From the IMG/VR virus record IMGVR_UViG_3300027741_002766, positions 1 to 64,000 of that record: 64,000 nt of DNA; one strand, written 5' to 3'. Position 1 is the first letter of the stretch, and each line of letters starts with the position of its first letter. The DNA is from a virus. The position numbers and the translations under genes are program-made. Of the stretch, positions 4,296 to 6,492 are shown one piece after another. Below the pieces are notes generated by a model that worked only from the letters and a program-made list of their open reading frames with translations, was not told where the DNA came from and did not search any database.

Positions 4296-4378
4296 AGAAC
4301 TTAACAAAGCAACAAAGTCGATCGAGACAGTTGCAAGGATCTTTAAAAATTACTTTCATATGGCCCTGGCAACAGGGA

Positions 4379-4597
4379 CCATATGAGAACACATTAGGGT
4401 TACCAGACCCGTTAGAGGCATTGGTAGAAGTGAACTGGCACCGGCGGGTGTCCACTTACTACCAGTCATGAAGCCGGCTCTCACCGTGAGGTGATCCAGA
4501 AAAGCGGCGGATCGTCTGGCAGTAATGACCGTGTACAGCGCAGAGTCGCAATCTGTGAAAAATCAGTACACAATGGTTCCCAAATGTTTTTTCATAT
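4379..4597 (+). ncRNA. unannotated structured RNA 1 (~220 nt, pseudoknotted)
   Basis: Long closing stem, several internal stems, ACCCGTT/GGCGGGT pseudoknot; ends at the tRNA-Glu 5' end. Confidence 0.65.
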
Positions 4598-4673
4598 GGT
4601 GGGTTCATCTAGAGGCCTAGGATAGTGCCCTTTCACGGCATTCACACCGGTTCGAATCCGGTACCCACTGCCA
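4598..4673 (+). tRNA. tRNA-Glu(TTC)
   Basis: GGTGGGT/ACCCACT, CT-TTC-AC loop, TTCGAAT, CCA. Confidence 0.95.
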
Positions 4674-4788
4674 TATGGAAGTATTCTTGGCGTAAGTCAA
4701 AGCAGGAGAAGAAACCTAGCATCTGCAGATGCGAAAGTTTCAGTGGTGCAAGTCCCCTCCTAGGCCTGCCGTTGAGAGTGCTTCTATA
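4674..4788 (+). ncRNA. unannotated structured RNA 2 (~115 nt, with a T-loop-like element)
   Basis: ~19-bp closing stem, GCAGG/CCTGC, GAAAC/GTTTC, GG-TGCAAGT-CC. Confidence 0.65.
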
Positions 4789-4792
4789 TGGT

Positions 4793-4952
4793 AGATGTTA
4801 TAGTCAAGCATCAATAAAGGTATCGTGAGAGGACGCTTTCACTATGCGGGCCCAACTGGCGAGGAACGGGTCCTGATATAACTGCTAGTCGCTATGGAAC
4901 GGAAGCCCCGGACTCCTAAATAGGCATCTCTTGGTGCTTGACTATAACATTT
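4793..4952 (+). ncRNA. unannotated structured RNA 3 (~160 nt)
   Basis: 22-bp closing stem 4793-4814/4931-4952, internal hairpins and a pseudoknot; ends one nt before tRNA-Asp. Confidence 0.7.
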
Positions 4953-5027
4953 GGTCCGATAGTATATCGGTTAGTATTTCGCACTGTCACTGCGAGGAGA
5001 CGGGTTCGATTCCCGTTCGGACCGCCA
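4953..5027 (+). tRNA. tRNA-Asp(GTC)
   Basis: GGTCCGA/TCGGACC, CT-GTC-AC, TTCGATT, GCCA. Confidence 0.95.
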
Positions 5028-5044
5028 ATTTTTTTAGGAGTTGT

Positions 5045-5362
5045 ATGAAAGTTTCTCACAAAGACATCATTGGTAATGAACTCAAACCCGATGCAGTTGT
5101 AGTTTATACAGACAACAACAGAATTGTTTTGGGTCGTATTGCAAAAATTCATGAGGGTAGCACCAAAGTTAGTGTAATACCTTTGCAGTCTGACACCAAG
5201 GGTCGGCGCCCGCCACCCAAAGCAAAAACAGTTCGCAGAGAAGATTACAATGTATTTGTGGTCAATGACGGAGAAGTTTTAATGGGAACATTAAAAGGCT
5301 ATGCTCACGACACTGGTCGCTGGACATATGATCCTGATGCAGATCCATATGAAGATGATTGA
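5045..5362 (+). CDS. hypothetical protein
   Basis: AGGAG RBS before ATG 5045. Confidence 0.75.
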   Translation: MKVSHKDIIGNELKPDAVVVYTDNNRIVLGRIAKIHEGSTKVSVIPLQSDTKGRRPPPKAKTVRREDYNVFVVNDGEVLMGTLKGYAHDTGRWTYDPDADPYEDD

Positions 5363-5371
5363 TAATTTTTT

Positions 5372-5434
5372 GAGAGCCACACCGCCCGGATACTTCCCCA
5401 GCAATGGGCACTAGGTCCTGCAACCGTGGCTCTC
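5372..5434 (+). ncRNA. small structured RNA / hairpin upstream of feoA
   Basis: GAGAGCCAC/GTGGCTCTC 9-bp stem, bulged extension capped by CCCA-GCAA-TGGG. Confidence 0.45.
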
Positions 5435-5452
5435 CCCTTTAAGGAGTTGACT

Positions 5453-5707
5453 GTGACCGATACATTAAACAACTTGCCAGCAGGTATCACTGCTGTCATT
5501 GATGACATTGAAGACAACCACAGTTACACTGATAGATTGAAGAGCATGGGATTTCGATCAGGACAAAGTATTCGAGTTCTTAGACGAACTCCGCATTGTA
5601 TGCATGTGCGAGTGGGTTCCAGTGAGTGGGCCATACGCAATCAAGATGCAAAATTAGTAAAAATTATTCCGGAAAACCCGAGCAAGGTGCATGGGCGTGA
5701 CTGTTAA
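5453..5707 (+). CDS. feoA: FeoA domain protein
   Basis: RLKSMGFRSGQSIRVLRR...VRVGSSEWAIR pattern; AAGGAG RBS before GTG 5453; 3' end overlaps tRNA-Asn. Confidence 0.8.
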   Translation: MTDTLNNLPAGITAVIDDIEDNHSYTDRLKSMGFRSGQSIRVLRRTPHCMHVRVGSSEWAIRNQDAKLVKIIPENPSKVHGRDC

Positions 5708-5746
5708 TCACTGGTTAGAAGAGTTCGATTCTCTTATCCGGAGCCA
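5668..5746 (+). tRNA. tRNA-Asn(GTT)
   Basis: TCCGGA acceptor, CT-GTT-AA loop, AAGAG-TTCGATT-CTCTT, GCCA. Confidence 0.85.
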
Positions 5747-5749
5747 AAT

Positions 5750-5947
5750 TTATTCGCCGGAGTTGTTGGCCACTTCTTGTGCGTCACCCATGACTTCGGG
5801 CGGTGCGCCAGGCACATTGTTTGTGGAGGGATCCAATAACATGTCGTTGGCAGCCAAGGCCGCAATTAGGTAATGTACTTTTTTCTCAAGATCGCGAAGT
5901 GCGCTGTCTTGATCAATACGTGAATCTCTAGCAAAAAAATTGTCCAT
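5750..5947 (-). CDS. hypothetical acidic protein, antisense within the tRNA array
   Basis: AAGGA RBS and TAAATA motif upstream; fills the gap between two tRNAs. Confidence 0.7.
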   Translation of the reverse strand: MDNFFARDSRIDQDSALRDLEKKVHYLIAALAANDMLLDPSTNNVPGAPPEVMGDAQEVANNSGE

Positions 5948-5984
5948 GGCAGTTTCCTTTTTGTCTAGTGTATTTACGCATGTT

Positions 5985-6058
5985 GGCTCGTTAGTATAGT
6001 GGCAGTGCGGAAGTCTCCAAAACTTCTAGCGGTGGTTCGATTCCATCACGAGTCGCCA
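5985..6058 (+). tRNA. tRNA-Trp(CCA)
   Basis: GAAGT-CT-CCA-AA-ACTTC, TTCGATT, GCCA. Confidence 0.93.
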
Positions 6059-6065
6059 AACACAT

Positions 6066-6151
6066 GGAGAGCGAGAAGCATTGGTGACTTCAGGAGACTG
6101 TAAATCTTCCACCTTACGGTATACGGGGTTCGAATCCCTGGCTCTCCACCA
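6066..6151 (+). tRNA. tRNA-Tyr(GTA)
   Basis: GGAGAGC/GCTCTCC, CT-GTA-AA, long variable arm, ACCA. Confidence 0.93.
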
Positions 6152-6152
6152 T

Positions 6153-6181
6153 TTGACACGCAACCGTAGGTTGTGTATAAT
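6153..6181 (+). promoter_or_regulatory. consensus sigma70 promoter
   Basis: TTGACA-N17-TATAAT. Confidence 0.85.
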
Positions 6182-6200
6182 ACTGTAAAATAGAAACAAC

Positions 6201-6278
6201 GCACTGGTGGCAGAGTGGCCCAATGCATGGGATTGCAAATCCCAAAAGTCGCTGGTTCAAATCCAGCCCAGTGCTCCA
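6201..6278 (+). tRNA. tRNA-Cys(GCA)
   Basis: GCACTGG/CCAGTGC, TT-GCA-AA, U73 discriminator, CCA. Confidence 0.93.
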
Positions 6279-6284
6279 AAACGT

Positions 6285-6492
6285 TCCAGCGTCACTGGAT
6301 ACTCTGGTCCCAGAGGATGAGAAGTGTGATGACACACACGGGCGGTACTGTTCAAGCCTTAAACAGCGTTGGCAATACGATAACGGTCCCTGTCGAGGAG
6401 CGGGTGGAGGGTGTAAGTGATGAATAGACTAGTTAGGGCAACTTGACGAAATTTCTGATACACTATAATTACCGCCGAGGGACGTCAGAGCA
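6285..6492 (+). ncRNA. unannotated structured RNA 4 (~210 nt multibranch)
   Basis: GGCGGTA/TACCGCC and CTCTG-TCCC/GGGA-CAGAG long-range stems plus at least 5 hairpins; lies between two tRNAs. Confidence 0.65.

Follow-up and report, generated by a model that had tools for sequence, protein, structure and literature searches.

We consider it probable that at least five separate, conserved and compact non-coding RNA genes are built into two transfer RNA (tRNA) operons of a phage, and that their products are excised from the tRNA transcripts and act in trans. The phage is represented by the first 64 kb (the whole stretch that was analysed, hereafter the window) of the 108.7-kb IMG/VR virus record IMGVR_UViG_3300027741_002766, and freshwater and lake metagenome runs contain this stretch; because the record is judged to be about 30% complete, the genome would be about 350 kb long, that of a jumbo phage. 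It is well supported that these structured RNA genes are co-transcribed with the phage tRNAs and delimited by them, and the layout also lends good support to their presumed release by tRNA processing.

The original prediction had described, between positions 4354 and 6492, a non-coding array of four strongly folded blocks (4354-4597, 4674-4790, 4791-4952 and 6279-6501) punctuated by tRNAs. The blocks are real, but the span is not all non-coding, as it carries open reading frames (ORFs) and tRNAs, including tRNA-Trp, tRNA-Tyr, tRNA-Cys and tRNA-Asn, and the count of four was too low, as there is a fifth conserved module at 5372-5434 and a candidate sixth at 6927-7079. Strong folding of the single sequence was borne out for RNA1, RNA2 and RNA3 (energy z values below) but not for RNA4 (z 0.02). 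The RNAs and the elements that adjoin them are:

4267-4295, plus strand: sigma-70-type promoter from a consensus scan (TTGACC, 17-nucleotide (nt) spacer, TACAAT, TG before the -10)
4379-4599, plus strand: RNA1, core 4390-4588, z -5.3, 30 distinct homologues
4598-4673, plus strand: tRNA-Glu(UUC) (ARAGORN, Rfam), its 5' GG and 3' CCA common to the terminal helices of RNA1 and RNA2
4671-4791, plus strand: RNA2, long-stem RNA of about 115 nt, z -4.1
4793-4952, plus strand: RNA3, z -4.6, 36 distinct sequences
4953-5027, plus strand: tRNA-Asp(GUC) (ARAGORN, Rfam), directly 3' of RNA3
5372-5434, plus strand: RNA5, hairpin module of about 63 nt with a closing stem of 9 base pairs (bp) and a covarying inner hairpin, z -3.5
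6153-6181, plus strand: perfect sigma-70 consensus promoter (TTGACA, 17-nt spacer, TATAAT; 12 of 12 positions)
6201-6278, plus strand: tRNA-Cys (ARAGORN, Rfam), with RNA4 beginning at the next base
6279-6498, plus strand: RNA4, knotted RNA of about 220 nt, 18 distinct sequences
6502-6576, plus strand: tRNA-Met(CAU) (ARAGORN, Rfam), starting 3 nt past the conserved part of RNA4

The promoter at 4267-4295, whose hexamers and spacing are kept in the relatives L036, L028 and L035, heads an operon of RNA1, tRNA-Glu, RNA2, RNA3 and tRNA-Asp, and the perfect promoter at 6153-6181 precedes tRNA-Cys, RNA4, tRNA-Met and tRNA-Thr.

Conserved structure of the RNA families

Selection acts on these RNAs to preserve a structure formed by RNA of the tRNA strand. 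The adjacent phosphoesterase gene, used as query, led to 80 loci among the 524 related phage contigs of one family, in which blastn and nhmmer found copies of every block, each in some loci; extra loci came from IMG/VR scans with invariant 14- and 15-mers of RNA3, RNA2 and RNA1. After removal of identical copies there were 42 of RNA1, nine of RNA2, 51 of RNA3 and 39 of RNA4, and each RNA family has one copy in the 108.7-kb record. In all of the layouts listed the modules share the strand of the tRNAs, and both their order and their presence vary among related phages. All four of the blocks first flagged proved to be conserved among these phages with compensatory changes; RNA1, RNA3 and RNA4 show strong covariation, and that of RNA2 is thin.

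RNA3 is closed by a terminal helix of 20 bp (4795-4814/4931-4950), 17 pairs of which covary and which encloses three hairpins and a pseudoknot. Over the 36 sequences 95% of cells are paired, versus 69% in column shuffles and about 39% with slid partners, and compensatory double changes were observed in 33 of the 43 pairs. The 4-bp pseudoknot, formed by a hairpin loop with a downstream strand (4859-4862/4889-4892), is 100% paired with two of its four pairs covarying, the switches being G-C/C-G (19:17) and A-U/G-C (20:16). Two extra pairs, 4793-4794/4951-4952, occur only in the single-sequence fold, and the expectation that RNA3 would end beside tRNA-Asp was correct, with the covarying helix reaching to 4950, the fold to 4952 and the tRNA starting at 4953. 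RNA3 also has an invariant 15-mer, UCCURAUAUAACUGC, which gave at least 119 stretches in the genomes of 185,579 species; the matches listed are all chance occurrences, with no full RNA3 among them. Two other ideas about this RNA were rejected: that it belongs to a shared stem with swapped cargo, since its type of stem is found only around RNA3 (23 of 23), and that RNA3 (ACUGGCGA) is a ZTP riboswitch, there being no pfl match at E<=10.

RNA4 fills the gap between tRNA-Cys and tRNA-Met, as had been proposed. Our model of nine helices, derived by eye, has helices at 6285-6299, 6302-6315, 6324-6339, 6348-6366, 6367-6379 and 6410-6415/6459-6464 and a pseudoknot in which the long-range helix 6341-6347/6470-6476 crosses 6386-6391/6478-6483. 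Over the 18 sequences 93.4% of cells are paired, where shuffles reach 77% and slid partners no more than 51%, and there is compensatory change in 23 of 45 pairs, three of them in the crossing helix. Since two long-range helices cross, the energy of the single sequence is poor, and the structure becomes visible only by comparison, not by free energy. A relaxed Rfam scan flagged GUGAUGA at 6417-6423, opposite CUGA at 6455-6458, as sub-threshold C/D small nucleolar RNA (snoRNA) matches; together with the flanking stem (6410-6415/6459-6464), which is 100% paired with three covarying pairs, these boxes form a C/D-type kink-turn in RNA4, though they vary in some relatives (e.g., UUGAU). Separately, the junction UAUAAU at 6464-6469 (TAYAAT in all relatives) resembles a -10 box and here has TTGACG 15 nt upstream; it may be an internal promoter or just a conserved RNA junction.

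The 30 sequences in the alignment of RNA1 fall into three subtypes with variable inserts. Because of these inserts we folded the subtypes separately and counted pairs by anchored extraction; RNAalifold gave the same architecture for each of the three. The 6-bp helix P2 (4403-4408/4514-4519) occurs in seven sequence versions. Five of them, in 22 of the 30 sequences, are perfect duplexes according to the anchored script; two more, CCUAGU/ACUGGG or ACUAGG and CCAACU/AGUUGG, are complementary by reading of the alignment, the script anchor being off there. The global count for RNA1, made on an imperfect alignment, is weaker (74% paired, with 19 of 32 tested pairs compensatory) because MAFFT misaligns some helices. 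At the ends of the RNA, a terminal helix of 21 positions and 19 pairs (4379-4399/4579-4599), read from the sequence and, in its inner part, from the fold and the covariation count, starts with CCAUAUG and ends with CAUAUGG. Its closing strands are CCAUAUGAGAACACAUUAGGG paired with CCCAAAUGUUUUUUCAUAUGG, the final GG of which is also the first two bases of tRNA-Glu, so that RNA1 does reach the 5' end of this tRNA, as the original prediction had it. No tRNA lies directly upstream of RNA1 in any of the 42 copies. We also noted a resemblance to the 23S GTPase-associated centre, with UUAGA.GCA, AGAAAGCG and GUAAU in the same order; the helical context is another one and Rfam gave no large subunit (LSU) match, and no relationship is claimed.

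One further element overlaps the start of RNA1:

4354-4388, plus strand: 5' hairpin in the minimum free energy (MFE) fold, its 3' arm (4379-4388) shared with the terminal helix of RNA1, where it serves on the 5' side

The 10-mer TTTCATATGG occurs at 4354 and again at 4590, and either copy is able to pair with 4379-4388; as both structures use this strand, the hairpin and the terminal helix of RNA1 are mutually exclusive. The arrangement recurs with differing sequences in L036, L035, L146, L117 and L089 and is absent from L028 and L030, and the competition may serve as a folding or processing switch. Further upstream (3960-4181) there are, conserved in relatives, a sigma-70-like promoter at 3960-3988, an ORF of 40 codons and a strong terminator at about 4146-4176.

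RNA2 has a terminal helix of about 19-24 bp that is rich in G.U pairs, starts on the CCA of tRNA-Glu (4671-4673) and ends UAUAUGG, and the claim that RNA2 abuts the 3' end of this tRNA is thereby upheld. Among the only five distinct sequences known, four pairs show compensatory change, and the long stem conserves six G.U pairs that would be C.A if read on the other strand; the data are thin, but they are consistent with a plus-strand RNA. In relatives RNA2 exactly spans the gap from tRNA-Lys to tRNA-His or tRNA-Met. It contains a T-loop-like element, GG-UGCAAGU-CC, in place of which L135 (with a 5-nt loop), L052 and L116 have an unrelated 4-bp hairpin.

For RNA5 we found nine homologues with compensatory changes in both stems. 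It is situated here between the 105-codon ORF at 5045-5362 and feoA, and in L036 (12185-12416) it has tRNA-Asp on one side and tRNA-Asn on the other, each only a few bases away. Because the three are contiguous in L036, the ORF and feoA look to have been inserted into the array.

CCA-anchored clamps and tRNA boundaries

A terminal helix of about 20 bp surrounds each of RNA1, RNA2 and RNA3 and is absent from RNA4 and RNA5, and these helices account for the local excess of CATATGG. The clamps of RNA1 and RNA2 start with CCA and end with UGG, the CCA of RNA2 being the real 3' CCA of tRNA-Glu, and many relatives have an RNA3 helix of this kind too, with the CCA of tRNA-Glu as its first bases and UGG by the following tRNA as its last. 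We searched 1083 distinct phage tRNAs ending in CCA for such clamps, defined as 16 bases counted from the CCA of which at least 15 pair with a partner within 420 nt. There were 54, versus two in a control with the 16-mer reversed and none in a shuffled control; 49 of them begin CCAU(A/U)N, 18 end at most 5 nt from the next tRNA, and the cargo within them measures about 40 to 230 nt. A single stem consensus, CCAUAUAAAAACACAUU paired with AGUGUGUUUCUAUAUGG, surrounds many differing cargos. This CCA-anchored clamp enclosing cargo RNAs is the new element of our finding.

In dozens of relatives the ends of the RNAs match the ends of tRNAs far more often than chance would produce. Of the 42 copies of RNA1, 32 are followed within 10 nt by the start of a tRNA (tRNA-Glu, tRNA-Asp or tRNA-Ser), as are 34 of the 51 of RNA3; on the upstream side, the end of a tRNA is no more than 10 nt away in 23 of the 39 copies of RNA4, six of the nine of RNA2 and 17 of the 51 of RNA3 (tRNA-Glu in 14 of the 17). 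For RNA4 the gap to the upstream tRNA is 0-2 nt in many relatives.

Did such blocks arise as mobile cassettes at the level of DNA, similar to miniature inverted-repeat transposable elements, or are they small protein genes? Conserved inverted termini that flank variable cargo, and a module order that has been shuffled between phages, would suit terminal inverted repeats, and short ORFs do overlap the blocks. However, the orientation always follows that of the tRNAs, the clamp stems contain 69 G.U pairs versus 20 A.C mismatches, with the conserved G.U pairs of RNA2 in agreement, and helices inside the cargo covary as do the pseudoknots, while for protein genes there are the common indels of 1-2 nt and the fact that the overlapping ORFs cross tRNAs and are lost where modules are absent. 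Both explanations seem to us hardly credible by comparison with RNA genes expressed from the tRNA strand.

The main rival to excised, trans-acting RNAs is that everything happens in cis: the clamps would be processing stalks, the cargo would prevent misfolding of the pre-tRNA and guide the cuts, and the excised pieces would have no job. Helices of about 20 bp joined exactly to the CCA and the 5' ends of tRNAs are what such stalks should look like, and one stem consensus around many unlike cargos is as well. What this explanation leaves unaccounted for is the retention of invariant 15-mers, covarying pseudoknots and a kink-turn across divergent phages; in addition, RNA4 is conserved though it has no clamp, and each cargo family stays single-copy while its tRNA neighbours change. 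We therefore regard a role in cis only as somewhat unlikely, and favour RNAs that have functions of their own after release.

The close fit to tRNA ends also raises the question of whether a core, most plausibly RNA3 or RNA4, is a new self-cleaving ribozyme that cuts at its own 5' end and so fixes where the tRNA before it stops. The cores are compact and pseudoknotted with invariant unpaired stretches, and in many relatives their 5' ends lie 0-2 nt past the CCA of a tRNA. Against this, no known self-cleaving class was matched even at E<=10, a cyclic phosphate left on the CCA would block charging, and 23 of the 51 RNA3 copies have no upstream tRNA within 100 nt and seven have none on the locus. 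Self-cleavage is in our opinion highly improbable.

Precedents, proposed release and possible function

None of the RNAs belongs to a catalogued family that we could find. Rfam 15 (4227 models) was run on the whole region and on isolated blocks, at gathering thresholds and at E<=10. At the former only tRNAs and transfer-messenger RNA (tmRNA) were found over the region; at the latter isolated RNA1, RNA2 and RNA3 had no match, and RNA4 had merely the sub-threshold C/D snoRNA matches, with 9-21 bits versus cut-offs of 39-48. The scan that had been proposed as a check on novelty has thus been made, with no family matched beyond these. When the 3.1-kb span was compared by blastn with 50,697 GenBank phage records, the best 20 of the 195 matching records showed matches in tRNAs and none in the RNA blocks. 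We found no literature description of these RNAs, although a catalogue of 8,495 short IMG/VR candidates (2023, PMC10690425) may hold pieces of them.

The closest precedent in layout comes from T4, in which rnaC and rnaD (the species 1/2 stable RNAs, of 139 nt and 119 nt, respectively) are likewise small stable RNAs in a phage tRNA cluster, on the strand of the tRNAs. There rnaD follows tRNA-Arg by 1 nt and rnaC follows rnaD by 6 nt, so abutment to a tRNA on the same strand is common to T4 and to our RNAs. The ends of species 1 and 2 presumably come from tRNA processing; the RNAs are stable and their function is unknown. Homology can be rejected, since a run of the RNA3 covariance model over the T4 tRNA region with filters off gave rnaC and rnaD no more than 3.3 bits, and the structures differ, rnaC having a tRNA-like T arm and rnaD being weakly folded, whereas pseudoknots, a kink-turn and 20-bp clamps anchored on CCA characterise the RNAs of this phage. 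GOLLD and ROOL, uncharacterised structured RNAs of phages and prophages with about 500-800 nt, often lie beside tRNA genes, and the comparison with them made in the original prediction is apt as to location only: there is no match to their Rfam models, and the RNAs here are far smaller (63-220 nt), come from a number of unrelated families within one array and connect directly with the ends of tRNAs. Long helices between leader and trailer and ends defined by tRNAs are known from the RNase III stalks of ribosomal RNA (rRNA) and from tRNA punctuation in mitochondrial transcripts and MALAT1-mascRNA. A terminal duplex of about 20 bp, as in RNase III stalks, is present in RNA1, RNA2 and RNA3, which by analogy might be cleaved in the same way, and RNA4 and RNA5 have no stalk; unlike in the rRNA stalks, the first bases of the helix here are the CCA of a functional tRNA, and one stem consensus is combined with many unrelated cargos in a phage tRNA operon. 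RNA2 shares a long terminal stem, an apical module and its place in a phage tRNA region with the YrlA/Y RNAs that go with Ro60/Rsr, but we rejected it as a Y RNA because there was no RF02553 match, its T-loop-like element is not conserved and no TROVE gene was found in the 108.7-kb record, which covers about 30% of the genome.

How would the RNAs be released? Host RNA polymerase would transcribe each operon from its sigma-70-type promoter, and RNase P, by cutting where the next tRNA begins, would generate the 3' ends of the RNAs. Their 5' ends could come either from cleavage of the clamp, at or inside the helix by an RNase III-like activity, or from 3' maturation of the preceding tRNA. The clamp might then shield both ends, such that the cargo would accumulate as a stable RNA, like species 1 and 2 of T4, and the invariant loops and knots of the cores would bind a specific partner in trans, whether a protein or a small ligand. 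Contigs of relatives in the RNA sequencing (RNA-seq) metatranscriptome X24 cover the RNA4 core at a depth of about 400 (single positions to about 960), compared with 240-930 in tRNA bins and 0-3.5 in ORF bins, which is a weak hint that RNA4 has the tRNA-like abundance of a stable RNA, and in run X23 a 227-nt contig covers RNA1 at 4398-4583 with five differences. Contig cover in X24 leaves out RNA2 and most of RNA3 and is uninformative for both.

Several points weigh against the excision of RNAs that act in trans. The X24 and X23 data are contigs, from which neither ends nor strand nor level can be read and some of which may stem from DNA. Adjacency to tRNAs is common rather than universal, as 20 of the 39 copies of RNA4 have no tRNA within 100 nt downstream, and the assignment of RNA2 as a family draws on five similar sequences, a thin basis. 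A base-paired CCA should hinder ordinary 3' trimming of a tRNA, and hence the helix may serve tRNA maturation and not the cargo. Finally, no partner protein, be it TROVE (PF05731), RtcB or the L7Ae family (PF01248), was found in the 108.7-kb record, about 30% of the genome; many kink-turns work without protein.

What would the released RNAs do? According to the original prediction they might act as decoys for RNA-targeting host defences or inhibit them; anticodon nucleases and RNA-guided systems would be examples of defences directed at RNA or tRNA. Phage tRNAs are thought to offset tRNA-cleaving defences, and co-expression with phage tRNAs would provide the context for such a role, as would the variation in presence and order of the RNAs between related phages. 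The cores, however, have no conserved tRNA-like anticodon or T arm (in L135 a 4-bp stem with a 5-nt loop replaces the T-loop-like element of RNA2), and no link to a defence or anti-defence gene was found; a decoy function appears to us very unlikely. A more specific version of the trans-acting RNAs that we favour, in which the clamp is a dedicated phage device that pairs with the 3' CCA and the 5' end of neighbouring tRNAs and so couples tRNA maturation to excision of cargo, and in which at least RNA3 or RNA4 is a new class of ribozyme or of ligand- or protein-binding RNA acting on the translation apparatus in infected cells, is on present data unlikely.

Giant phages bear large tRNA arrays of debated purpose, and in this array there are complex RNAs that selection has maintained as carefully as the tRNAs. 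At least five new RNA families in 3 kb, with natural variants sufficient for modelling, are material for RNA structural biology and for ribozyme or aptamer searches. The CCA-anchored clamp offers a hypothesis, testable in vitro, of how several products could be cut from one tRNA precursor, and it may prove useful in designing tRNA scaffolds that release defined RNAs.

Other features of the tRNA region

The plus strand of the window carries ten tRNAs and a permuted two-piece tmRNA (ARAGORN, Rfam), and the window encodes a baseplate wedge protein, an HNH endonuclease, radical S-adenosylmethionine (SAM) proteins and other auxiliary genes. Between the two operons and around RNA5 are:

5045-5362: ORF of 105 codons
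5453-5707: feoA (Pfam FeoA, 1e-12)
5668-5746, plus strand: tRNA-Asn(GUU), a cloverleaf in the MFE fold, called here neither by ARAGORN nor by Rfam
5750-5947, minus strand: ORF

In the tRNA-Asn positions 7-66 form an A.A mismatch and the D loop is long, and its copy in L028 (12471-12549), which is 97.7% identical, is called as tRNA-Asn. The feoA frame overlaps it, with the TAA stop (5705-5707) in the anticodon loop.

The block at 6927-7079 (153 nt) is a candidate sixth RNA module. It ends at the 5' end of tRNA-Ser and has homologues in L036, L028, L480 and L003, the L036 copy ending at tRNA-Arg(UCU); in the window a minus-strand ORF (6849-7064) overlaps the block. The tRNA-Ser itself (7080-7169) has the unusual anticodon ACT according to ARAGORN, with the same call in L003. 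Another unusual tRNA, with anticodon CTA (called Pyl by ARAGORN, i.e., an amber suppressor), lies directly 3' of tRNA-Asp in the relative L117, at about 1560-1640.

The permuted tmRNA gene (8950-9310) is of betaproteobacterial type and has its own near-consensus promoter at 8964-8992; in relatives the tag ANDEQFALAA is encoded. Auxiliary genes around the array (1300-2404, 7245-7949, 8207-8983, 21581-34026 and 45922-58449) include those for an AhpC-type peroxiredoxin, a CMD-family protein, a fatty-acid desaturase, a GDSL lipase, a carbamoyltransferase and several radical-SAM proteins, and the same stretches also contain an ORF of 4175 codons.

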